Assembly: GCA_030698385.1 (NCBI GenBank)
Contig: JAUYLZ010000018.1
Coordinates: 42,744 to 106,743, forward strand
Length of the DNA stretch: 64,000 nucleotides
Direction: 5' to 3'
From: a bacterium
GTDB taxonomy: Bacteria > Patescibacteriota > Patescibacteriia > Patescibacteriales > XYC2-FULL-47-12
The notes under the pieces were generated by a model, which saw only the letters and a program-made list of their open reading frames with translations, had not been told where the DNA came from and did not search any database. Positions 3,422 through 48,566 of the stretch are shown here, one piece after another. Position 1 is the first letter of the stretch. Each line of letters starts with the position of its first letter. The translations under genes were made by a program, and so were the position numbers.

Positions 3422-4183
3422 GTGAAATATAAAATGTACAATACTATTACTAAAAATCAATGGCTCAAAAAATTACAGATTTCACCAACAGCGGTACCTG
3501 ATATTTTTGTTATACACGGCAGTATGTTTTTTAACAAGAGAGTGAAAGAAATCAAAAAGTTTTTAAATAGCAGTCAGGTAGTGCCTGATTTACCTATTGT
3601 TCTAGGAAAACTTGAAAAGCAAAAGGTGGGTATCTCAGTGGCGTACGGTGGACCGATGGCTTCAGAATTTGCTCACATATTCTCTGTATTAGGTACAAAA
3701 GTTATCATACAGACCGGAACATTTGGCGGGTTAAAATCAGAATTGATGCCTGGCGATTGCTGTATACCAAAAGCAGTTTTCCCCGGTGATGACGCATCTG
3801 GCTACTATACAACAAAAAAAACCGTCGCATTACCTACGAACGGTCAATTAAGAAATATACTGGCGGAAAAATTACAGTCTGCTGGCGTATCGTATTGTTC
3901 GGGGAATGTCTTTACAACAGCTGCGATGCTCGCAGAATCTGAACGTGATCTACAGTCCTTACAACGGCAAGGATATTGTGGTATTGACTTGGAAACCGCT
4001 GCGGTCATTGCTGTGGCGCGGTCATTTAAGATACCGGCTGCCGCCATGTTACGTATGGGTGAAAATTTAGCGTTGCATCAAAATAACATTACCGATAAAA
4101 TTGCCGCTGGAGCAACAACAAATATTGCGCTGTGGCATATTGCCATTACAGCGGGTATAGAGTATGTTAGCAGGAATAAGTAA
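3422..4183 (+). CDS. nucleoside phosphorylase (PNP/UDP family)
   Basis: 253 aa. Contains VIIQTGTFGGL and CGIDLETAAV segments typical of the PNP_UDP_1 fold. Confidence 0.65.
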   Translation: MKYKMYNTITKNQWLKKLQISPTAVPDIFVIHGSMFFNKRVKEIKKFLNSSQVVPDLPIVLGKLEKQKVGISVAYGGPMASEFAHIFSVLGTKVIIQTGTFGGLKSELMPGDCCIPKAVFPGDDASGYYTTKKTVALPTNGQLRNILAEKLQSAGVSYCSGNVFTTAAMLAESERDLQSLQRQGYCGIDLETAAVIAVARSFKIPAAAMLRMGENLALHQNNITDKIAAGATTNIALWHIAITAGIEYVSRNK

Positions 4184-14311: not shown

Positions 14312-15046
14312 TCAGAGAAAGGGTTTATTTTTTTTAAAATCCAACAGCGAGTAAAGCGATTTTTTTTTGCCATAAAACGCTGCCCATTCCCGATCGCCGT
14401 ATGAAAAATGCCACCATTCTCCGTAAAAGGGCGCGAAATTCTGTTGTGTCAAAGAATCATGCAGTAGCTTACGGTTCTTTGCTTGGATTTTTGAGATATT
14501 TTTACTAAAAGTTTTTATTACTTCTGTATTAGTATAATCGGCAATATTAGTTCCCATGTCTAATTCTCCATTATCATCAACAATCGTTACGTCAACAGCA
14601 CCTCCAGTCACATGACCCGCGACTTCCGGCATAGCTACAAAATTATGTGTTATTGCATTAAGCTCATCTTCAGATAAATCAGGGTGCTGTGCGCGAATAA
14701 TATCCTTTCGTTTGATAAAATATTTTTTTTGCACAACTGGGTGACGATACCCGTAGACCACTTTTAATTTATAGTTTGGATTAATTTTTTTTAAGCTGTT
14801 ATTAGCTTTATTAAGTTTTTGAGCTACGGTTTTTCGTACAAAAATGCTATTGCCAATATAAGGTTTCATGTCAATTTTTTTATATTTACATATTATATCT
14901 GCACACACTTTATTCAAATCTACCAATTCTTCATTATTTTCATAAACCTTTATTTTTTGCAATTCCGCAATATTAAAAATTTTTCTATTTTGAATATAAC
15001 TTGTCATAGTTACAACTATAGCAAATTTTTCTCTTTCTACCAACAA
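14312..15046 (-). CDS. D-Ala-D-Ala dipeptidase (VanX/DdpX, peptidase M15D)
   Basis: Contains YGYRHP, GHVTGGAVDVT and EWWHFSYGD motifs. The true start may be internal (MTSYIQ). A terminator hairpin AAACCCTTTCTCatcaGAGAAAGGGTTT overlaps the stop. Confidence 0.8.
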   Translation of the reverse strand: MLVEREKFAIVVTMTSYIQNRKIFNIAELQKIKVYENNEELVDLNKVCADIICKYKKIDMKPYIGNSIFVRKTVAQKLNKANNSLKKINPNYKLKVVYGYRHPVVQKKYFIKRKDIIRAQHPDLSEDELNAITHNFVAMPEVAGHVTGGAVDVTIVDDNGELDMGTNIADYTNTEVIKTFSKNISKIQAKNRKLLHDSLTQQNFAPFYGEWWHFSYGDREWAAFYGKKKSLYSLLDFKKNKPFL

Positions 15047-15590
15047 CCGAGTAACTAATTATTGTGTCAGGTTAAAAAAATACCCCACAGAAATATACTG
15101 TGGGGTAATGATAAACTTTGTACTACATACAAACTGTATAAAACTATTACTGATTATGTTGCATGTTTAATTCTTCAACAGTTTCTTCATTGCCCAGCAC
15201 AAACGCCTCGCTGTCAGCTCTGTCCGTATTGCGTGCAAAGATAATGACGCAATCCGCAAGCGCATGAACTTCGCTACCACCACCACAACCAATAAGCTCT
15301 CCAGCGTGTAGTGGCTCAAAATCGGCAAAGATTCTGGCGCGCTATTGAAGAAGTGTCACATACAATAATTAAATGTGGCAACCTGCCACGCCTGCCTTTC
15401 GGATCACCATGTAACGGCGATCCTTTCGTATCGTACCTTGAATCGCTTATTCGATAATACGGTGGACATGTACGTGCCCGCCGAATGACAATGATGAAAT
15501 ATAGTAATCATTGTCTTTTTTTTGAAAAAAATCCCCTCCTGTTAACACAATACAAGAGGGGTTGTTAGTATAAAAACAACAAGTTATACA

Positions 15591-18725: not shown

Positions 18726-19913
18726 TTAAAACTCCTGCCGAATGCCAATCCCCAGCATCCAGCCGTTTAAATCAATATCTCCGGCGCCGATGTTGCGCGC
18801 GCTAACTGAAATGCGCCGATCGGCAAAGTAGTAACCGGCACCGAGGTCAAGGTAGGTGTGTTTGACAATTTGGCAACCAACCCCGCCGGTAACAATCCAG
18901 CCGGCTCCGTCCGGAATTGACGGCGGCGAATAGTCGGGCGTGCCGGCAGACATCCAAGCTCCGCCGAGCCGCAAAGTCCAAACTTCGTCCGGCTCGTACT
19001 CCAGCCCGGCGTGCACCGCATCAACCGCGCTCCATCCCAGGTCCAAAACATTCACAGGTAAGTTATCGTAACGAACCGCTACTTGATCATTTTTGCCATA
19101 GTCGGTGCGAAAGTATGATACTCCCGCTTTTAGTTCTTCCAGCGCCTGCCAAGATAAGCCAACCCCGAAACGCTCCGGCTGATAAATACCGGCGGACATG
19201 TTGTCGCTCGCAATGCCCACTCCGGCCGGAAATTTAGTCTCGCCGTCAATACCAACTTTAACTGACGGCGCATACACCAAGCCAAGCTTGAACGGGTCAA
19301 AGCGGAACAGCAGGCCAAGCTGAAACCCATAGCCGAAACCATCGGCTTCGGTTGTGGTCAAACCAAGCAACGCTGTGCCAGTCTGATCCAGCAACGGCAT
19401 CCGTAAATCCGCATCGCCATAAACAGTTTTGAACGAGGCGCCTAACGAAAAATACTCGTTAAACTCGTAGGCGGCGCCAAGCGTTACGTCGACAAACGAC
19501 AGATAGGTGTCAAAGCCTAAGCTGTCGCCGTAGTCCGCCGCCAGACCATAGGGCGCGTCAATACCGAGAGCAAAAACTAAGTCCTGCCAGCGGTACGCGA
19601 CCGCGCCGTAAGGAAACAAAAAGGTTTCATCTCGCGCCGCAAAATGACCGCCGCCTAAAATTAAATCACGATCATAGCTGAAATTTGTTGTCAGCCCGAC
19701 CAAACCCAAATCCCAGGCCCACTTATCAATTGCGGTAAGCGCGGCCGGGTTCAAAAATACCGCGCTGGCGCCATTGGGATCGGCAACCGTAAAACCACCT
19801 GCGGTTGCCAAGTCGCGGGCGGTAATGCCGTTCGCGGGACGATTAAGCGCGCCAGCCAAGCTTGTCTGAATAAAAACAACTAGTAACGCCAAAAATACCA
19901 CGAATCTTTTCAT
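18726..19913 (-). CDS. FadL/TodX-type outer-membrane transport protein
   Basis: 395 aa. Signal peptide MKRFVVFLALLVVFIQTSLAGA, alternating beta-strand pattern, terminal aromatic residue (..IRQEF). Visibly more G+C-rich than its neighbours. Confidence 0.65.
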   Translation of the reverse strand: MKRFVVFLALLVVFIQTSLAGALNRPANGITARDLATAGGFTVADPNGASAVFLNPAALTAIDKWAWDLGLVGLTTNFSYDRDLILGGGHFAARDETFLFPYGAVAYRWQDLVFALGIDAPYGLAADYGDSLGFDTYLSFVDVTLGAAYEFNEYFSLGASFKTVYGDADLRMPLLDQTGTALLGLTTTEADGFGYGFQLGLLFRFDPFKLGLVYAPSVKVGIDGETKFPAGVGIASDNMSAGIYQPERFGVGLSWQALEELKAGVSYFRTDYGKNDQVAVRYDNLPVNVLDLGWSAVDAVHAGLEYEPDEVWTLRLGGAWMSAGTPDYSPPSIPDGAGWIVTGGVGCQIVKHTYLDLGAGYYFADRRISVSARNIGAGDIDLNGWMLGIGIRQEF

Positions 19914-39368: not shown

Positions 39369-40523
39369 TTAACAAATTATTTTTTCAATGCGTTCAAGAC
39401 CGGCGCGCAACTGATTCTCACTCACCGCGCAGGTGATACGACAGCAATTGTCAAAATCGCCAAAAGCAATTCCCGGGACAACGGCGACATTGGCTTGGTT
39501 AAGCAAGTGCTCGGCAAATAGAATTGAATTGATTCCGTTTTTTTCATTCATAAACGGAGAAAAATCAGGGAAGGCGTAAAAACCGCCGTCAGCGCCGCCG
39601 CAAAAAATGTTTAACCTTTTAAACCAACACCACAACAGTTCTCTTTGTTTGGCATAGCAATGAATCAACGGCTCTTGATTAAGCGCCTCGACCGCCGCGC
39701 ACTGTCCAATGCTATTTGGGCAACCGGAAAATGTTTCTAAGTACAGCGTAACTTTTTGCGCCAACTCCGCCGGCATAATGCCGTAACCGATTCGCCAGCC
39801 CGTCATTGCGTACGCCTTGGAAAATGATCCGATAATGACCGCGTTTGGATCAAATCGTAAATAAGACTGTTCAAATCCGACCGGATAATAACATTCGTCA
39901 GAAATAACGGCAATGCCGGCCGTTCCCTGCCGATACCGCTTGGCCAGCTGGCTGATCTCTTTTACGACCGAATCGCTGTAAACGGCTCCAGTCGGATTAT
40001 TTGGCGTATTTAAAAGCAAGCAAATTAAGCCAACAAAACCGTTGGCAAGCAACGCTTGTAAATAACGCTCCATTTCACTGGTGACTGGGACAAAATTTTT
40101 GTCACACTCCAACAAATAAACCTTCCCTCCTAGCGATTTGATTCCAAAAAAGTAAGGCGGGTAATGCGGTGTCGGCATCAGCACCGGCTGATCCTGATCA
40201 ATGAGCGTCCAAAATACCGCTGTCGCGACGCTCTTGGCGCCATTGGAAATAACCACCTGTTCCGGTTTAACGCGGTACCTTTGAGCGATACCGGCGCGCA
40301 ACTCAATAGAGCCGCTGGCCGGCGTATACCTGGTTTGATGCAAGTTAATCGCTTTTTGAGCGTGCCTCTCAATTGCCTCAGGCGTATTAAGAAAAGATTC
40401 GCCCACTCCCAGATTAATAATCTCTCTTCCGTCTGCCTGCAAAGACTTAATTTTTTTCAATAAATCCTGCAATGGCGATGGTTCCAAATATTTGCTACGG
40501 AAACTAAACTGCGTTGACATCAC
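39369..40523 (-). CDS. class I/II PLP-dependent aminotransferase (aromatic/aspartate type)
   Basis: SFSKAYAMTGWRIGY Lys motif and NPNNPTG. Last gene after the PDT and PDH genes. Confidence 0.8.
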   Translation of the reverse strand: MMSTQFSFRSKYLEPSPLQDLLKKIKSLQADGREIINLGVGESFLNTPEAIERHAQKAINLHQTRYTPASGSIELRAGIAQRYRVKPEQVVISNGAKSVATAVFWTLIDQDQPVLMPTPHYPPYFFGIKSLGGKVYLLECDKNFVPVTSEMERYLQALLANGFVGLICLLLNTPNNPTGAVYSDSVVKEISQLAKRYRQGTAGIAVISDECYYPVGFEQSYLRFDPNAVIIGSFSKAYAMTGWRIGYGIMPAELAQKVTLYLETFSGCPNSIGQCAAVEALNQEPLIHCYAKQRELLWCWFKRLNIFCGGADGGFYAFPDFSPFMNEKNGINSILFAEHLLNQANVAVVPGIAFGDFDNCCRITCAVSENQLRAGLERIEKIIC

Positions 40524-40546: not shown

Positions 40547-41257
40547 TTAAAGAACTTTATTTTTTACTGACTGTATCGCTCTGACAAACTTACTAATTTC
40601 AGTTCTGGCGTAAGGATTGTACTGTATCATATCGGTAAACAGTTGCCAAGTGTCTTTACTAACATGATCGTTAATGGCCAACATTCTGTCAAAACCGGGC
40701 GTTTTGATCTTTTGATCTTTGATATTGGCGGCGCTAAGAGCTCGGCCGATAAAATGAACCAAGGCTAAGCTGCTTGCCGCCTGCCGGTCGTGATCCGACG
40801 GCGTGGTGATAATAATTTTTAAACCAAGACTCCTAAAAACCGCCTTTACTTTAGATAACATTTTTTTATCAATGGCAATCGGGCAAAGGACGATTTGCAG
40901 GTTGCGCAAACCAAATTTGGCGCTGTCCGGCCCAAACATCGGGTGCGTTCCTAAAATGTTTACGTCCGCGGGCAAATGTTTTCGCAACCACTCGCAAGGA
41001 TACACTTTTACCGAGGCCACGTCCATGATCACGGCGCCGGGCTTGAGCTTATTGCTGATATTTTTAATCAGACTCTCAAGTTTGGAAATAGGCACGGCCA
41101 AAATTATCCAATCCATTTCAGGCAGTTTTTGCAGGGTAGTAACTTTATGCCGGCAATTAACTTTTTTGTTGGCAATAATAAAAATCTGACCGTATGGCGC
41201 GAAAATTTTTGCCGCTAATTTTCCAAATCGACCGAAGCCGATAATGCAAATATTCAT
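40547..41257 (-). CDS. tyrA: prephenate/arogenate dehydrogenase
   Basis: MNICIIGFGRFGKLAA Rossmann start, DVASVK and HPMFGP. Confidence 0.75.
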   Translation of the reverse strand: MNICIIGFGRFGKLAAKIFAPYGQIFIIANKKVNCRHKVTTLQKLPEMDWIILAVPISKLESLIKNISNKLKPGAVIMDVASVKVYPCEWLRKHLPADVNILGTHPMFGPDSAKFGLRNLQIVLCPIAIDKKMLSKVKAVFRSLGLKIIITTPSDHDRQAASSLALVHFIGRALSAANIKDQKIKTPGFDRMLAINDHVSKDTWQLFTDMIQYNPYARTEISKFVRAIQSVKNKVL

Positions 41258-41258
41258 A

Positions 41259-41825
41259 CTATTTCTTGGCAGCCAAAATAAATGTCGTAAAGTTGAACTT
41301 CAAATCCTGAATGCTCTCTTCAAGTATTTCTAAGTCATACAATTCAGCCGCGCGTTTGGGCGCGATGACCGCAGCATTGGATGGCAATACTCCGGCGGAC
41401 AAATCTTTGGCTGCCTGCGCCGTGTCGCTCCACTCAATTAATTCAGCGCCTTGCCAACGCCTTTTTAAATACATACGGCATTGTTTTAAAGCCTGATCAT
41501 GAGATGCAATTTTTTTTATATCTTCTTTAGCGACTCCTGGCAAAGCCATTAAATTGTGCTTAACATCAATTTCGAAGATATTTTCAATTGAAAAAGTATG
41601 TTTAGCCATAGCGTAAATCGCTTCATATACTATACCTCCGTTTGAGTTTTCAATCGGAAAAACTCCTCTGTCAATTTTGCCGCCAATTAATGAATTTAAA
41701 ACATTTTCAACACTGATTAAATATCTTAATTCATAATCAACGATATTGTTTTTTTGGCAATAATATTGCGCGGCTTCTTCGGAAAAACTGCCCTCACTGC
41801 CGGACACGCCGATTGTTATATGCAT
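41259..41825 (-). CDS. pheA: prephenate dehydratase domain protein (no ACT domain)
   Basis: 188 aa. GSEGSFSEEAA and VFPIENSNGGIV PDT motifs. Ends before any regulatory ACT domain. Confidence 0.8.
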   Translation of the reverse strand: MHITIGVSGSEGSFSEEAAQYYCQKNNIVDYELRYLISVENVLNSLIGGKIDRGVFPIENSNGGIVYEAIYAMAKHTFSIENIFEIDVKHNLMALPGVAKEDIKKIASHDQALKQCRMYLKRRWQGAELIEWSDTAQAAKDLSAGVLPSNAAVIAPKRAAELYDLEILEESIQDLKFNFTTFILAAKK

Positions 41826-42432: not shown

Positions 42433-42623
42433 TAAAAAAACTGACCCCCTTGCGGAAGCCAGTTTTTTTGTTTCCCTAATGATGTATTATAACTTATAAA
42501 ACATCACCAAAAACTGCACTTCCGCGCTGGAAGCCGTAAAAGAAAAAGCTAAAGCTTAATACAGTTTTTGCTAATGTTTTAATCATATGTGGATATTCTA
42601 ACACAGATTTTTAAAAAAAACAA
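42433..42623 (-). promoter_or_regulatory. Phe-type leader-peptide transcription attenuator
   Basis: TGtTAGAAT extended -10 (42595-42600) sits 8 nt before the AUG. Antiterminator GCGGAAG-TG-CAGTTTTT pairs with AAAAACTG-G-CTTCCGC. Terminator ACTGGCTTC cgcaag GGGGTCAGT plus U7 (42433-42466). Confidence 0.6.
42494..42586 (-). CDS. Phe/Tyr-rich leader peptide (30 aa)
   Basis: MIKTLAKTVLSFSFFFYGFQRGSAVFGDVL*. Not in the track. No SD; the AUG is 8 nt after the -10. Confidence 0.55.
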   Translation of the reverse strand: MIKTLAKTVLSFSFFFYGFQRGSAVFGDVL

Positions 42624-42746: not shown

Positions 42747-43508
42747 TTAATTAATCGGCTGCAACTTCTCTGGATAAGTTGCGTTGATCAATGCGCGCGC
42801 TAAAATCAGCGTCGGATCAATCATTATTGTTCCATCAATTTCTTTTTCGGTAATCGCTAATGGTATTTCCGTGCAACCTAGAATTACCGCTTGCGCTCCT
42901 TTTTTTTGCAAATGCTGAACGCCTCGCAAAAATTCGCCGCGCGCTTTTTCGGTCACCGGACTGGATTGCGCTTTGATGCCGTAAGTCTCATCGTAAATTG
43001 CGTTATGAACCATATTCTGCACATCCTCATCAAGCACAACTACCTTAAATCCTTTTGCTTCAAGAATGGCGGGATAGACTTTTGATCGGAAAGTTCCGAT
43101 TGTGGAAAGAACGCCGATGGTTTTGACATCAGGATAGTTCGCCGAAACATATTTCGCCACCTCCTCAATCATATTCAGAAGTGTTCCGGAAAAACCAGTT
43201 TTTATCAACCGCTCATTGATAACATTAAATATCTGCGGTGAATGCATTGTGTTGCAAGGTATGCCAATAACATCAGCTCCCGCGACATACATGCGCAAAA
43301 TAATATCAGCAACTGCCGGCGCGGGATTATCAACTTTTCCCAACAAAAATTGGGTACGATCATTAATGCGTTCAGAAAATGACAGGTGTAGTACTGGCAG
43401 ATGCTCCTGATCATTTAACGCTTGAGTGTTATCCAGAATTTTTTTGTGCAAATCAAGTCCGGCGTATGGGCCGACTCCGCCGACTATTCCAATTACTTTT
43501 TTTTCCAT
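42747..43508 (-). CDS. aspartate racemase (Asp/Glu racemase family)
   Basis: IGIVGGVGPYAGLDL, IPCNTMH and ILGCTEIP. Start moved to MEKKVIG (AGGAG, then 7 nt, then ATG). Own promoter TTGCAA-17-TATGAT. Confidence 0.8.
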   Translation of the reverse strand: MEKKVIGIVGGVGPYAGLDLHKKILDNTQALNDQEHLPVLHLSFSERINDRTQFLLGKVDNPAPAVADIILRMYVAGADVIGIPCNTMHSPQIFNVINERLIKTGFSGTLLNMIEEVAKYVSANYPDVKTIGVLSTIGTFRSKVYPAILEAKGFKVVVLDEDVQNMVHNAIYDETYGIKAQSSPVTEKARGEFLRGVQHLQKKGAQAVILGCTEIPLAITEKEIDGTIMIDPTLILARALINATYPEKLQPIN

Positions 43509-43615: not shown

Positions 43616-45280
43616 CTAAACTGCTACTTCTTTAGGAAGTTCCTCTTGGCTTGACTTTGATTCTAAATGAGCCAAAAACCAGCTCAAACAATTGGCAAAC
43701 GACTGAGCTGTCGCTTGAGTCGTATCAAGATCAACTGAATGGCCGGTAAACAGATTGTGGCCATTATTTTCTACGCGAATCCGAGAAAAAACCGTGGCCA
43801 ATCCTTCAGTACCACCGCCTTTAACAAGACCAGCTTTCCAATCGTCAAGTTTTATTTCCCAATTATTTAAATCGGGGAAAAAATGCTTGGCGGCGGTCAA
43901 GACGGCTTTCATCACGGCGTCATATGTTCCGTCTCCTGAATTTGTTACGGTAACGGAATTTCCGTTAACTGCCATAGATACCGCGGCGGTCGGAATCGTG
44001 CCGCTGCCGCCAAATGCCTGACAGTGAGTAATATTCATGAGATAAGGAACGTCATCTACGCAATCTTGAACGATGGCCGCTATCTCTTCTTCGGAAGCCT
44101 CTCTCATGTTCTTTGATTCTGACAGCCGCATCACCTGTTCATAAATTACCTGCAACTGGTCTCTAGCCACCTTGTAACCCATTTCCTCAAGTTTTTTTTG
44201 CACGCCGGGACGACCAGAGTTAACGTCAATGACATAATTAAACTTGACGCCATGGCCATACTTGGAAGGATCCCAGCTGTAATAAGGACTGGTTTTATTC
44301 TGCTTCTCGGCCTTTTCCTCAATGCCTTGGTGCGTGCCCGCGCTGCAAATTTTATTCTGTTCCCCAACCACCGGCCAATGACGCGGCACGGTCATACCAA
44401 GCTTATTGGCAATGAAGTGAACTATTCTGCAACAATGACTAATGTCAAAATTAACTGCCAAGTTGACAAACCTAATATCTTGCATACAATCACTGCGTGT
44501 GGCCAAATTCCAAAGAATTGATTCGAATTTTGTCATGCCGCTGCGCTCACCCAGTCCAAAAAAAGTTCCTTCAACAATACTTGCGCCCCGCAAAATTGCC
44601 TGCAAAGCATTGTTGGTTGCGTGATCACTGTCGTTATGACAATGGACTGAAATGTGCGCGTCGGCAATATTTGAAACACGTTCAAATAATGTTTTAATAA
44701 TGCTTCCAAATTCATCACCAATTCGCAAACCGGTTGTGTCTGGAATGTTTACCACGGTGGCGCCGGCGTCTATAACGGTCTCGACAATCTCACACAGAAA
44801 ATCAATTTCAGTGCGTGCGGCATCTTCGGGAGAAAATTCCACATGTTCAAAACCGATACTGCGCGCGTATCGCACTATCCGCTCGGCAGTATTTAGATAC
44901 CACTGCTGTTTCCCCTCTTTGGTATCCCCATACTTGCTGTCATAAAACTGGGTCAAAAGCAATTCGTCGCTGGTTGGAATATAGATATGACACAAATCAC
45001 AACCGGCTTCCTTAACCGCCATCACACCTTTCTCCAGCGCAATTGTCAAACCGCCTAAGAGCGGCCTATCTTCCACACTCAGTTCATTAACAAACTTAAC
45101 AATTCTTTGACAATTTTCCATTTGCTTTTGCGAGCTATATGGATAGCCAATCTCAATTCGATCAATACCGCCATCAATCAACATTTTAACATAGGTTAAT
45201 TGATCCTGCGGCGACATGGAGCCACCTTCAACCTGCGCTGACTCCCGCAAAGCTACATCGTTTAATAATATCCTTCTCAT
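43616..45280 (-). CDS. leuA: 2-isopropylmalate synthase (with C-terminal LeuA regulatory domain)
   Basis: 554 aa with an HMGL-like barrel (IEIGYP, HCHNDSDHATNNAL) and a long C-terminal domain. Followed by terminator AGAGCCATT..AATGGCTCT plus a U run. Confidence 0.8.
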   Translation of the reverse strand: MRRILLNDVALRESAQVEGGSMSPQDQLTYVKMLIDGGIDRIEIGYPYSSQKQMENCQRIVKFVNELSVEDRPLLGGLTIALEKGVMAVKEAGCDLCHIYIPTSDELLLTQFYDSKYGDTKEGKQQWYLNTAERIVRYARSIGFEHVEFSPEDAARTEIDFLCEIVETVIDAGATVVNIPDTTGLRIGDEFGSIIKTLFERVSNIADAHISVHCHNDSDHATNNALQAILRGASIVEGTFFGLGERSGMTKFESILWNLATRSDCMQDIRFVNLAVNFDISHCCRIVHFIANKLGMTVPRHWPVVGEQNKICSAGTHQGIEEKAEKQNKTSPYYSWDPSKYGHGVKFNYVIDVNSGRPGVQKKLEEMGYKVARDQLQVIYEQVMRLSESKNMREASEEEIAAIVQDCVDDVPYLMNITHCQAFGGSGTIPTAAVSMAVNGNSVTVTNSGDGTYDAVMKAVLTAAKHFFPDLNNWEIKLDDWKAGLVKGGGTEGLATVFSRIRVENNGHNLFTGHSVDLDTTQATAQSFANCLSWFLAHLESKSSQEELPKEVAV

Positions 45281-45340
45281 TTTTTTCTTTTACCCCGTCC
45301 AAATTTATTTGGCAGGGCTTTCTCCTTTAATATTTTTGTT
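45278..45340 (-). promoter_or_regulatory. conserved 5' leader hairpin element, copy 2 (leuA)
   Basis: Minus-sense ACAAAAATATTAAAGGAGAAAGCCCTGCCAAATAAATTTGGACGGGGTAAAAGAAAAAAAATG. The left arm differs from copy 1 (CCCTG vs CTCCG) but still pairs through G.U. Confidence 0.5.
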
Positions 45341-45446
45341 TTTCGACTTCATAGCCGAATAAATATACATTATTTGTCATTCCTGTGTAGGCAGGAATCC
45401 AGAAATATATATTTCCCCCGGCCATGAAATGTTTGTAAAGAGCTTT

Positions 45447-45656
45447 AAAAAACAAAAAGCCACCCGTTTGGATGGTTTTCTACAACTTTTATACGTTTAT
45501 ATATGAATTAACGCCTTACGCTTTCGCGTTTAAACCATCCAAAAAATCTCGGCCAAGGAGGCTGAGCAAGAGGCTTAAAAGCAATAAGCTTTTGCTAATT
45601 TTTTGCATGATTTTACTCATATATAAATATCCTAACATATTTTTAAAAACTGTCAA
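45447..45656 (-). promoter_or_regulatory. Leu-type leader-peptide transcription attenuator upstream of leuA
   Basis: TTGACA-16-TAGGAT, with the AUG 8 nt after the -10. Antiterminator TTTGGATGGTTT (in the CDS, plus 45532-45543) pairs with AAACCATCCAAA (45467-45478). Terminator CCATCCaaacGGGTGG followed by CUUUUUGUUUUUU. Confidence 0.65.
45516..45620 (-). CDS. Leu-rich leader peptide (34 aa)
   Basis: MSKIMQKISKSLLLLSLLLSLLGRDFLDGLNAKA*. Nine Leu in an 11-residue stretch, using TTA/TTG/CTT/CTC codons. Not in the track. Confidence 0.6.
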   Translation of the reverse strand: MSKIMQKISKSLLLLSLLLSLLGRDFLDGLNAKA

Positions 45657-46171
45657 ATCGCACGCTGTTGCTGTAGTATTTTTACCTGTTTTTCCAATTC
45701 TTGGTACTTTTGTTTTAATTCCTGAACATCACTATTCATTGCCGCCACATCCTCAGATTCCATTCTCATAATACGATCAATTTTTGCCTCAACGCGCGCC
45801 AAATCATTCCGAAATGTTTCCATTTCTGTATGAATCATGCTCAATTCATGTTTAACAAAAACCATGTCCTGCTTTAAACCAGAAACATCTTCTTTCAAAC
45901 CAGAAACATCTTCTTTCAAACCAGAAACATCTTCTTTCAAACCAGAAACATCTTCTTTCAAGCCAGAAACATCTTCTTTCAAACCAGAAACATCTTCTTT
46001 CAAACCAGAAACATCTTCTTTCAAACCAGAAACATCTTCTTTCAAACCAGAAACATCCTGCTTTAAAACACCAATATCTTTTTTAATTGGCTCAAGCGCA
46101 ACATCAAGCGCCGCCTCAATACTGACGTCAATTACTTCTTTGATTGATTGTAGATCACTTTTATCTAACAT
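45653..46171 (-). CDS. coiled-coil protein with DVSGLK[EQ] heptad array
   Basis: 172 aa, nine consecutive 7-aa units, helical flanks. Confidence 0.6.
   Translation of the reverse strand: MLDKSDLQSIKEVIDVSIEAALDVALEPIKKDIGVLKQDVSGLKEDVSGLKEDVSGLKEDVSGLKEDVSGLKEDVSGLKEDVSGLKEDVSGLKEDVSGLKQDMVFVKHELSMIHTEMETFRNDLARVEAKIDRIMRMESEDVAAMNSDVQELKQKYQELEKQVKILQQQRAI
45876..46064. repeat. 21-bp tandem repeat, about 9 units
   Basis: AAACCAGAAACATCTTCTTTC repeated head to tail. One unit has AAG for AAA; the last has ..CATCCTGCTTT. Confidence 0.9.
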
Positions 46172-46710: not shown

Positions 46711-46901
46711 AAAAAAGTCCCGCCGGGGCGGAACTTTTCTCTGTTGAATTATTTATGCTTTTATATATGAGAAAAACTTCCACCCCCAGGCTGGCTAATA
46801 ATAATACTAATAATACTTGCCCCGCCTTTATGGCTGGGGATTGTTTTGCGGAAATTTTTCATAGTTACTTATTATATTATCATAATAAAAATGTTTGTCA
46901 A
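46711..46901 (-). promoter_or_regulatory. Ile-type leader-peptide transcription attenuator
   Basis: TTGACA-16-TAATAT, with the AUG 11 nt after the -10. Antiterminator GGGGTGGAAgTTTT (CDS, plus 46773-46786) pairs with AAAAgTTCCGCCCC. Terminator GTTCCGC(C)cc(G)GCGGGAC plus U6 (46711-46734). Confidence 0.55.
46761..46862 (-). CDS. Ile-rich leader peptide (33 aa)
   Basis: MKNFRKTIPSHKGGASIISIIISQPGGGSFSHI*. Five ATT codons within six positions. Not in the track. Confidence 0.5.
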   Translation of the reverse strand: MKNFRKTIPSHKGGASIISIIISQPGGGSFSHI

Positions 46902-47839: not shown

Positions 47840-48154
47840 TTAATTGGTGATCTGCTTTAGCTGATCAGCCGACATTTTTTCACAAATTTCTTTAGCCAGA
47901 ATAATATCAACTGGACCGCCATTTAAATTTAATGACTGGATTGCCTTTTTTACTGTTATAAAAACAACTTCCTCTTCTCTTGGGTGATAGTCGGCGAACG
48001 TATAAAGCAACTTCCTGTCTCCGGTCACAACCATTTTAATGCCCGCTTTGTAGCAATAATTAGATTTGTTAACCGGAAAACCTTTTCGAACTCTAGCTTG
48101 CGGTCTAAACTGTGTTACTCCATCATCAAACATGATTTCAATTTTCATCATCAT
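47840..48154 (-). CDS. hypothetical 104-aa protein
   Basis: Track ORF. GGAG lies upstream. Immediately follows the 56-aa ORF. Confidence 0.4.
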   Translation of the reverse strand: MMMKIEIMFDDGVTQFRPQARVRKGFPVNKSNYCYKAGIKMVVTGDRKLLYTFADYHPREEEVVFITVKKAIQSLNLNGGPVDIILAKEICEKMSADQLKQITN

Positions 48155-48169: not shown

Positions 48170-48340
48170 TTAAAATCTAACGGTAGCGACATTTTCTTGC
48201 AATCTTCGTAAATGATAGCCCAACTTTCTTTGTTCGTAACTATCTTTCTTATTCAATCTTTCAAGCTTGTGTTTAATCTGAAAAATCTGTCGACTGCATT
48301 CCTCAACTTTTACTACTACTGACGGTGTCACTTCGCGCAT
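48170..48340 (-). CDS. hypothetical 56-aa protein
   Basis: Not in the track. AGGAGG, then 7 nt, then ATG: MREVTPSVVVKVEECSRQIFQIKHKLERLNKKDSYEQRKLGYHLRRLQENVATVRF*. Confidence 0.4.
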   Translation of the reverse strand: MREVTPSVVVKVEECSRQIFQIKHKLERLNKKDSYEQRKLGYHLRRLQENVATVRF

Positions 48341-48364: not shown

Positions 48365-48566
48365 AAAAGATCAAACTAAAGAGGCCACCCTTTTGGATGG
48401 CCTCAATTTTTATTTTGCTAATATATTAAAACGATAAATGCCATCCAAAAAATGCCGAAGCAATAACTGCTACGACGACTGCGAGTACTACTGCTAAAAC
48501 AGCGTTAATTTTTTGGATAGCTAAACTCATATTTATATATTTTAGCTGATACTAAAATTTTGTCAA
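48365..48566 (-). promoter_or_regulatory. Val/Ala-type leader-peptide transcription attenuator
   Basis: TTGACA-16-TAAAAT, with the AUG 8 nt after the -10. Antiterminator TTTTGGATGGC (CDS, plus 48440-48450) pairs with GCCATCCAAAA. Terminator GAGGCCATCCaaaaGGGTGGCCTC (48381-48404) followed by UUUAGUUUG. Confidence 0.6.
48426..48530 (-). CDS. Val/Ala-rich leader peptide (34 aa)
   Basis: MSLAIQKINAVLAVVLAVVVAVIASAFFGWHLSF*. Seven Val and seven Ala. Not in the track. Confidence 0.5.
   Translation of the reverse strand: MSLAIQKINAVLAVVLAVVVAVIASAFFGWHLSF

Follow-up and report, generated by a model that had tools for sequence, protein, structure and literature searches.

How would a lone leuA-like gene be adjusted to the leucine supply of its cell? 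This question is raised by a 64,000-nucleotide stretch of Patescibacteria DNA (contig JAUYLZ010000018.1; hereafter the window), in which a short open reading frame (ORF) carrying a leucine-codon run lies directly upstream of a gene for a LeuA-like enzyme. The initial annotation had proposed a leader-peptide leucine attenuator before leuA, a proposal that gained support from the conservation of the Leu run in 14 of 14 related loci and from the assignment of the enzyme to the LeuA family. We consider it very likely that the element is a ribosome-mediated leader-peptide transcription attenuator, which would set expression of the leuA-like gene by the supply of charged tRNA-Leu.

The leader ORF and its predicted competing RNA structures

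The leader ORF carries nine leucine codons among codons 12-22 (TTA, TTG and CTT twice each, CTC three times), and we propose this run as the site of ribosome stalling. The choice of leucine codons showed no bias toward rare codons and mirrored the usage of the genome itself, so that several isoacceptors would be sampled without any rare-codon trick. Upstream of the ORF lies a promoter-like site whose -35 box, a perfect TTGACA, overlaps the stop codon of a gene for a coiled-coil protein, and whose extended -10 box lies 8 nt from the leader ATG. Position 45656, the edge of the stretch in the initial annotation, is not the start of the ORF but the first base of this -35 box, the ATG lying at 45620.

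Within the ORF, the core of region 2, TTTGGATGGTTT, is the exact reverse complement of region 3, AAACCATCCAAA, and region 3 in turn overlaps an intrinsic terminator in its left arm (Table 1). A gap of 12 nt separates the final codon of the Leu run (45557-45555) from region 2, and one of 13 nt separates region 2 from the stop codon. None of 1000 shuffles of the ORF tail reached the observed complementarity, and of 251 other terminator-like hairpins, taken from the window and related loci, just 2% have an upstream complement of at least 11 bp, part of these 2% belonging to sibling attenuators. When forced, the antiterminator had a free energy of -22.7 kcal/mol compared with -7.5 kcal/mol for the terminator hairpin. 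The nine leucines in 11 residues with four kinds of Leu codon, the 12-bp perfect complement inside the ORF, and the overlap of its target with the terminator left arm and T-tract (45475-45447) had all been described beforehand and were recovered here on the minus strand, the terminator also by an independent scan. The stop codon does lie just past the complementary segment, as had been noted, at 13 nt rather than 12.

To follow the competition between these structures, we used masked folding, in which the transcript of each locus, ending with the hairpin, was folded while the stretch under the ribosome was barred from pairing. The results for the window showed that a stall at the first Leu codons gave 12 antiterminator pairs and no terminator pairs, and that a ribosome at the stop codon gave 6 terminator pairs and no antiterminator pairs.

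From the elements and their geometry, and from the conservation and covariation described below, we infer how transcription start, ORF translation, stalling and termination would follow one another. A consensus sigma-70-type promoter would start transcription some 2 nt ahead of the leader ATG, and a ribosome would load onto the near-leaderless RNA. With plentiful leucine, this ribosome would pass all nine Leu codons, reach the stop codon and cover region 2; region 3 would then pair with region 4, the terminator would form, and RNA polymerase would stop in the T-tract (45458-45447). With scarce leucine, the ribosome would stall in the Leu run, at least 12 nt upstream of region 2, and any stall there would leave region 2 free to pair with region 3 over 12 bp once the latter is made, blocking the terminator and allowing read-through into leuA. 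If the ORF were not translated, region 2 could pair with region 1 at the 5' end of the ORF, again favouring termination.

Table 1. Positions of the leader elements, the leuA-like gene and other putative leaders in the window
Feature	Position	Strand	Details
Promoter-like site	45656-45629	minus	-35 TTGACA 45656-45651, 16-nt spacer, extended -10 TGtTAGGAT 45637-45629
Leader peptide ORF MSKIMQKISKSLLLLSLLLSLLGRDFLDGLNAKA	ATG 45620 to TAA 45518-45516	minus	34 codons plus TAA
Region 1 (probable) AAATCATGCAAAAAATT	45613-45597	minus	codons 3-8; pairs with region 2 in the ribosome-free minimum-free-energy fold
Leu-codon run, codons 12-22	45587-45555	minus	TTA TTG CTT TTA agc CTC TTG CTC agc CTC CTT
Region 2 GATTTTTTGGATGGTTT	45548-45532	minus	inside the ORF; core TTTGGATGGTTT 45543-45532
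Region 3 AAACCATCCAAA	45478-45467	minus	12 Watson-Crick pairs with region 2; overlaps terminator left arm
Intrinsic terminator CCATCC-AAAC-GGGTGG	45475-45460	minus	followed by CTTTTTGTTTTTT 45459-45447; independent terminator scan agrees
Palindrome GGATTCCTGCCTACACAGGAATGAC	45400-45376	minus	single-copy, no T-tract, within the 166-nt terminator-leuA spacer
leuA-like gene	45280-43616	minus	554 aa; HMGL-like catalytic and LeuA_dimer regulatory domains; NCBI protein MDP3899877.1
Terminator-like hairpin after leuA AAGAGCCATT-TTTAC-AATGGCTCTT	43593-43559	minus	hairpin 43593-43569, then TTTCTTGCAA
Ile-run leader MKNFRKTIPSHKGGASIISIIISQPGGGSFSHI	46713-46862	minus	promoter TTGACA...TAATAT; terminator AAAAGTTCCGCC-CCGG-CGGGACTTTT
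Val/Ala-rich leader MSLAIQKINAVLAVVLAVVVAVIASAFFGWHLSF	48381-48530	minus	promoter TTGACA...TAAAAT; terminator GAGGCCATCC-AAAA-GGGTGGCCTC
Phe-run leader MIKTLAKTVLSFSFFFYGFQRGSAVFGDVL	42434-42587	minus	terminator 42469-42434
Small ORF with LLVVVVVAKF	15081-15328	minus	terminator TACCCCACAG…CTGTGGGGTA; upstream of ORF 14312-15046 (minus)

Conservation across related loci and alternative readings

We compared the window with 14 further loci, mostly metagenome contigs of Patescibacteria, with enzymes 49-57% identical. Nine of these loci came from a metagenome scan with the clade-specific segment GERSGMTK and the remainder from exact-protein look-ups. A scan of genome contigs with the single window protein returned no relative, and a scan with the clade alignment was dominated by canonical LeuA of other phyla at about 30% identity, which was reused as a negative control. 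The set includes two pairs of close relatives (L004/L087 and L097/L098), and with these in mind the loci count as closer to 12-13 independent observations than to 15. A MAFFT alignment of 12 leaders lost the helix register; complementarity was instead assessed locus by locus, with shuffles and with a null drawn from all other terminators.

The results revealed a Leu-run small ORF upstream of the gene in all 14 further loci (for example LSLLLSLLLGLLLGREFLDGL, NLLLLLPLRRVAVFS, NLLLGLLLLLLPQRVACF, NLLLNLLLLRNKRVV, ALLLLLLPFGGRF and NLLALLLLVEEGF), accompanied by a terminator and a covarying region 2:3 pairing, so the run expected in orthologous leaders is present throughout. The intrinsic terminator starts 22-40 nt past the leader stop codon, and an ORF-internal segment is complementary to its left arm, in each of the 15 loci. 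In 12 loci, region 2 follows the Leu run at a distance of 4-12 nt and leaves 10-17 nt to the stop codon; in the other three (L096-L098), it abuts or overlaps the stop codon. The antiterminator had a median length of 10 bp, compared with 6 bp for the 251 other terminators (Mann-Whitney p = 1.5e-8). The paired sequences vary from locus to locus and remain complementary (GGATGG/CCATCC, GGGTGGC/GCCACCC, GGGCGGC/GCCGCCC, GTGTGGTTAGT/ACTAGCCACGC, TGGTGGAAGGTT/AGCCTTTCGCCA and GCGGTCTTGTTTTT/AAAAATAAGACTGC). Between the window and its closest relative, L002, a change from GGTTT to GGCTT in region 2 is matched by one from AAACC to AAGCC in region 3. Additionally, a helix of 7-14 bp between the 5' part of the ORF and region 2 recurs in most loci (combined p = 3.5e-6), and masked folding predicted the expected switch of fold in 11 of the 15 loci.

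Similarly, 10 of the 15 loci share a TTGACA or TTGACT box, a spacer of 16-18 nt and a -10 box that precedes the ATG by 6-12 nt; they lack a Shine-Dalgarno sequence. Because so little space separates the -10 box from the ATG, the leader ORFs are probably translated from leaderless or nearly leaderless RNA, with putative transcription starts placed by these promoter-like sites. Neither this feature nor the probable region 1 had been mentioned in the initial annotation.

The Leu-run ORFs are rare elsewhere. A count over both strands of 372 kb gave 16 ORFs that are 10-70 aa long and have 7 or more Leu within 11 residues; 13 of them are leaders of the leuA-like family, giving a background, outside the leaders, of about 3 per 372 kb. 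As a control, the combination of a Leu-run ORF and a terminator was found in only 1 of 76 upstream regions of canonical leuA from other phyla, this one being in a deltaproteobacterial metagenome-assembled genome (MAG).

These comparisons bear on a different reading of the small ORF, in which it encodes a genuine hydrophobic membrane or toxin-like peptide with its own terminator, leuA has an independent promoter within the 166-nt spacer, and the complementarity is a coincidence. The leader peptide is hydrophobic, the sibling Val leader AVLAVVLAVVVAVIASAFF resembles a membrane helix, and the long spacer holds a weak promoter-like match before leuA. Across the 15 loci, however, only the Leu run and the pairing geometry are kept, and not the remainder of the peptide. 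The Leu runs are nearly pure leucine and some have only 5-6 residues; runs of LLLLL length are too short for a membrane helix and could not span a membrane, which argues against a membrane peptide. The region 2:3 complementarity, which covaries and goes far beyond that at other terminators, and the position of the ORF, which in 15 of 15 loci immediately precedes the leuA-like gene, with an Ile-run ORF before a paralogous enzyme, likewise speak against it, and we regard a membrane or toxin-like peptide as highly improbable.

Several observations nevertheless weigh against the attenuator. The terminator hairpin of the window is weak, with 6 bp including one G-U pair at the energy given above (-7.5 kcal/mol), and at 4 of the 15 loci equilibrium folding retained the terminator despite a stalled ribosome. 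Without a ribosome, the terminator and antiterminator folds of the window leader differ little in energy: the former (-49.9 kcal/mol) wins over the latter (-46.8 kcal/mol) only when the T-tract is included, and the minimum-free-energy fold at the decision point is the antiterminator. The region 1:2 helix of the window is A/U-rich and was matched by 995 of 2000 shuffles, so it is not individually significant. The 166 nt between the T-tract and leuA hold a weak promoter-like match (TACACA-16-TATATT, 9/12), from which some leuA transcription may bypass the attenuator. The enzyme itself scores under every curated cut-off for 2-isopropylmalate synthase (IPMS) and has altered signature motifs, and its link to leucine comes from context. 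Finally, the support as a whole is drawn from sequence, and transcript ends, ORF translation and the leucine response are predicted from it.

The RNA structures could also be real and yet be switched by a leucine- or tRNA-binding RNA or by an RNA-binding protein rather than by a translating ribosome, a type of control once proposed for the actinobacterial LEU element. The absence of a Shine-Dalgarno sequence from the leader would suit such a switch, as would the behaviour of the Streptomyces leuA leader, in which mutations of the Leu codons gave results that deviated from classical attenuation (PMC1262725). Against it, an Rfam scan of the window at gathering score returned 3 tRNAs only, and a scan of 45200-45700 at E<=10 found no riboswitch, T-box or Leu_leader (RF00512), the best matches being rnk_pseudo (28.1 bits) and Phe_leader (20.4 bits), both with a gathering score of 55. 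Unpaired nucleotides that are conserved and might build a ligand pocket were not seen, and the loci have little primary sequence in common beyond the Leu codons and the G-rich region 2. The frame, the start codon, the Leu run and the distance from the stop codon to region 2 are conserved, which only translation explains. Corynebacterium attenuators are described as encoding leader peptides without a ribosome-binding site or on leaderless transcripts (works cited in PMC8709942), a precedent for translation of the present ORF. A ribosome-independent switch is thus improbable, and we retain the ribosome-mediated attenuator.

Some features of the related loci stand beside these results. In L098, a second Leu-containing small ORF, MKHHFVQKLHKWLPLLLSVCFCVE (3902-4027), follows the first leader with a terminator of its own and may form a tandem attenuator before the leuA-like gene. 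Two Deltaproteobacteria/Syntrophaceae MAGs (L084 and L051) have Leu-run ORFs (…ALLTLLLGLALLRLLLKAACPSFLGRR and …TLLLLALLGLLPNGRRPSFLGNP) upstream of canonical leuA with a common C-terminal PSFLG, in L084 also with a terminator, and these may represent another family of leuA leaders. A coiled-coil protein of 137-172 aa lies directly upstream of the Leu leader in several loci (window 45653-46171, minus strand; L002 5149-5592; L004 5422-5835), and that of L002 contains EDVSGLK repeats. The gene order Response_reg, NDK, small ORFs, leader and leuA is kept in the window, L004, L095 and L096.

The putatively regulated LeuA-like enzyme

The leuA-like gene is probably monocistronic, because it is followed by a terminator-like hairpin and then by a racemase gene with its own promoter-like site, AAGGAG Shine-Dalgarno sequence and ATG at 43507. 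The initial annotation had likewise given leuA a terminator of its own and had seen no other leucine-pathway gene in the window. Both points held: tblastn of the window with LeuCD, LeuB, IlvE and a ThrC-like protein from a related contig gave no match, and Pfam scans of about 45 window ORFs revealed no other gene of a branched-chain pathway.

To place the enzyme, we compared its matches to curated models. IPMS models scored 240-310 bits, compared with 137 bits for citramalate synthase and 152 bits for homocitrate synthase, and the top matches among solved structures were IPMS (6e1j, 3ewb and 3eeg). The best score to an IPMS equivalog model was 310 bits against a cut-off of 532, and that to TIGR00973 was 285 against 599 (models NF002086, TIGR00973 and others). 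The nearest relatives fell into about 50 clusters with identities of 46-57%, most of them carrying a Patescibacteria or Parcubacteria label, and canonical LeuA came next at about 32%; the names given to these relatives do not go beyond 'alpha-isopropylmalate synthase regulatory domain-containing protein' or 'LeuA family protein'. The clade (P0001-P0050) carries the motifs LRE[SG]AQ (LRESAQ in the window) and GLGERSGMT, whereas all 70 canonical LeuA retrieved carry LRDGEQ and G[VI]GERAGNA, which suggests a modified active site. A literature search found no published substrate-specificity residues by which the enzyme could be classified. We conclude that it belongs to a divergent, Patescibacteria-associated LeuA subfamily and is a putative 2-isopropylmalate synthase, the substrate being inferred.

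The gene neighbourhoods in related contigs bear on the amino acid concerned. Fused LeuCD and LeuB adjoin the leuA-like gene in three loci, directly after it in L004 and L087 and on the opposite strand in L089/L095. In two contigs, a citramalate synthase paralog stands beside the leuA-like gene. With 716 bits at a cut-off of 450, that of L088 (167-1738) is a bona fide citramalate synthase. The paralog in L093 (1233-2612), citramalate-synthase-like with TIGR00977 as its best match, is the one with enough upstream sequence, and it is preceded by an Ile-run leader, MASLQYNISIISIIIIIRYCPS (ISIISIIIII; 1039-1152), together with a terminator and antiterminator; 2 kb downstream, the leuA-like gene has the Leu leader MNRITAQNLLLNLLLLRNKRVVLDFV and a terminator. 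The Ile-led citramalate paralog and the leuCD/leuB neighbours are arguments for an amino-acid run that matches the pathway of the gene behind it, and for this clade as the leucine-specific paralog. The initial annotation had left room for a citramalate or homocitrate synthase; the model and structure matches, the leuCD-leuB neighbours in three relatives and the separate citramalate paralog favour the putative LeuA assignment.

Our confidence in a true IPMS within a complete leucine pathway is lower than in the attenuator mechanism. A working leucine attenuator might instead control an enzyme that acts on another 2-oxo acid or in salvage or exchange, with leucine starvation as the signal. The motif differences and the 310 bits against a cut-off of 532 point in that direction, as do the lack of any leuBCD or ilv gene in the 64 kb and the solitary position of the gene in most relatives. 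Candidate phyla radiation (CPR) bacteria are usually described as lacking amino-acid biosynthesis, and their genomes are generally without amino-acid pathways. On the other side stand the leuCD and leuB genes adjoining in three relatives, the best model and structure matches to IPMS, the separate Ile-led citramalate synthase in related contigs, and the fact that leuA apart from leuBCD is normal in Actinobacteria. We consider such another role unlikely, though deserving of more weight than the alternatives to the attenuator itself. The lone leuA is less odd than the initial annotation implied, because Actinobacteria have monocistronic leuA under attenuation and because the leuA of most relatives also stands alone.

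In the leuA-leuCD-leuB-ilvE cluster of related contigs, we also observed a threonine-synthase-like PALP enzyme (NF006050, 311 bits) fused to a C-terminal LeuA_dimer domain, an unusual fusion (L004 10945-12795; also in L087 and L095).

Sibling leaders, host lineage and known systems

Other leaders in the window resemble the Leu leader in having a promoter near the ATG, an amino-acid run, an ORF-internal region 2 facing the left arm of a terminator, and the terminator itself; they differ in their regulatory codons and downstream genes, those after the Ile and Val leaders encoding small proteins of no known family. In the Ile leader, the segment GGGGTGGAAGTTTTT is complementary to the terminator left arm, and the leader precedes a 115-139-aa protein (ORF 46289-46636/46708, minus strand) without a Pfam or NCBIfam match; much the same leader (…IIISQPLGGS…) occurs in L002 and L092. 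The Val/Ala leader, which shares the word TTTTTGGATGG with the Leu leader and could also be read as a membrane helix, precedes ORFs of 56 and 104 aa (48170-48340 and 47840-48154, minus strand) without a family match. Downstream of the Phe leader lie small ORFs and genes for prephenate dehydratase (PDT, 41259-41825), prephenate dehydrogenase (PDH, 40547-41257) and an aminotransferase (39369-40523), and homologous aromatic leaders (MIKTLQ.TYF.F.F…VFCGVL) are present in L088, L096 and L093. Membership of the leuA-like gene in this aromatic-amino-acid or homophenylalanine-type cluster (in the window and L002, genes for PDT, PDH, DAHP synthase and chorismate mutase lie downstream) was ruled out, as the cluster has its own Phe-run leader and terminator. 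The small ORF with LLVVVVVAKF, which lies before a Peptidase_M15/VanY-like gene of the D-Ala-D-Ala dipeptidase family (14312-15046, minus strand), may be another Val attenuator or a chance occurrence.

The source organism is a Patescibacteria (CPR) bacterium. The AspRS of the window is 76-81% identical to proteins of Patescibacteria, Candidatus Falkowbacteria and Uhrbacteria, and the gene content (many aminoacyl-tRNA synthetases, DUF5671 and few metabolic genes) fits a reduced genome. A Legionella- or Coxiella-like gammaproteobacterial host, considered from the GGATTCCTG...CAGGAATG palindrome, was ruled out by the AspRS identities and by the single-copy state of the palindrome. A 395-aa ORF (18726-19913, minus strand) matched the FadL/TodX family of outer-membrane transporters (Toluene_X, 104 bits), which is unexpected in Patescibacteria, a group generally considered to lack an outer membrane.

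Taken further, the siblings would belong to a lineage-wide set of amino-acid-specific attenuators in Patescibacteria, in which leaderless Leu, Ile, Val/Ala and aromatic leaders serve as the main starvation sensors of reduced, probably host-dependent cells and stand before remnant biosynthesis genes (the lone LeuA-like gene, citramalate synthase and prephenate dehydratase) and conserved small unknown proteins. The LeuA-like enzyme (LRESAQ, GERSGMT) would then be starvation-induced with a different or salvage role, outside a complete leucine pathway. We offer this only as a tentative and rather doubtful extension.

Leader-peptide attenuation is a textbook mechanism, described mainly in Proteobacteria, Actinobacteria and a few Firmicutes, and to our knowledge almost nothing is known of gene regulation in CPR bacteria. 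A literature search, incomplete in coverage and giving absence of evidence only, found no attenuators or leader peptides of this kind in Patescibacteria or other CPR bacteria. The present leaders indicate that Patescibacteria, most of them uncultured, probably sense leucine supply in the classical way, and a conserved, covarying Leu attenuator would mean that no less than the opening step of a leucine-linked pathway is retained in these cells and tuned to tRNA charging. They also offer the functional label 'leucine-linked' for an enzyme subfamily left unnamed by annotation pipelines, and an amino-acid run followed by a terminator provides a simple signature by which unknown genes of uncultured genomes could be linked to an amino acid.

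In the enterobacterial leuL-leuABCD system (RF00512), consecutive Leu codons precede mutually exclusive antiterminator and terminator structures, and a ribosome at the stop codon masks the antiterminator strand. The window element follows the same switch logic, but it has nine Leu codons of four kinds instead of four, shows no rare-codon bias, and has an ORF that is probably leaderless. In addition, its probable region 1 does not cover the Leu codons but precedes them at the 5' end of the ORF, and a single gene rather than leuABCD follows.

The nearest analogues are the leuA leaders of Corynebacterium glutamicum and other Actinobacteria, which share a monocistronic leuA and a short upstream ORF with a Leu run; they come from a different phylum and show no sequence similarity to the window leader. 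Expression of IPMS in C. glutamicum was reported to be under leucine transcription attenuation (PMC8709942). In the actinobacterial LEU element, often without an obvious terminator, a pseudoknot pairs the Leu codons with the Shine-Dalgarno sequence of leuA (PMC1262725). Here, in contrast, a clear intrinsic terminator lies 166 nt upstream of the gene with classical 2:3 and 3:4 competition, and the Leu run is at least 275 nt upstream of the leuA ATG, with the terminator and the 166-nt spacer between them. The leucine-rich attenuator peptide of the Staphylococcus aureus ilv-leu operon, whose Leu-dependent control is experimentally supported (PMC5794164), is likewise encoded by a short ORF with many Leu (and Ile) codons, downstream of which lies a terminator hairpin; an antiterminator is predicted there as well. 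The S. aureus leader differs from the window leader in having a ribosome-binding site, mixed Ile and Leu codons, an antiterminator that takes up the poly-U tail in place of the terminator left arm, and an operon of nine genes. Compared with these systems, the mechanism itself is already known; the lineage in which it appears is new, as far as searched, and the gene that it would regulate belongs to an unnamed divergent LeuA subfamily.

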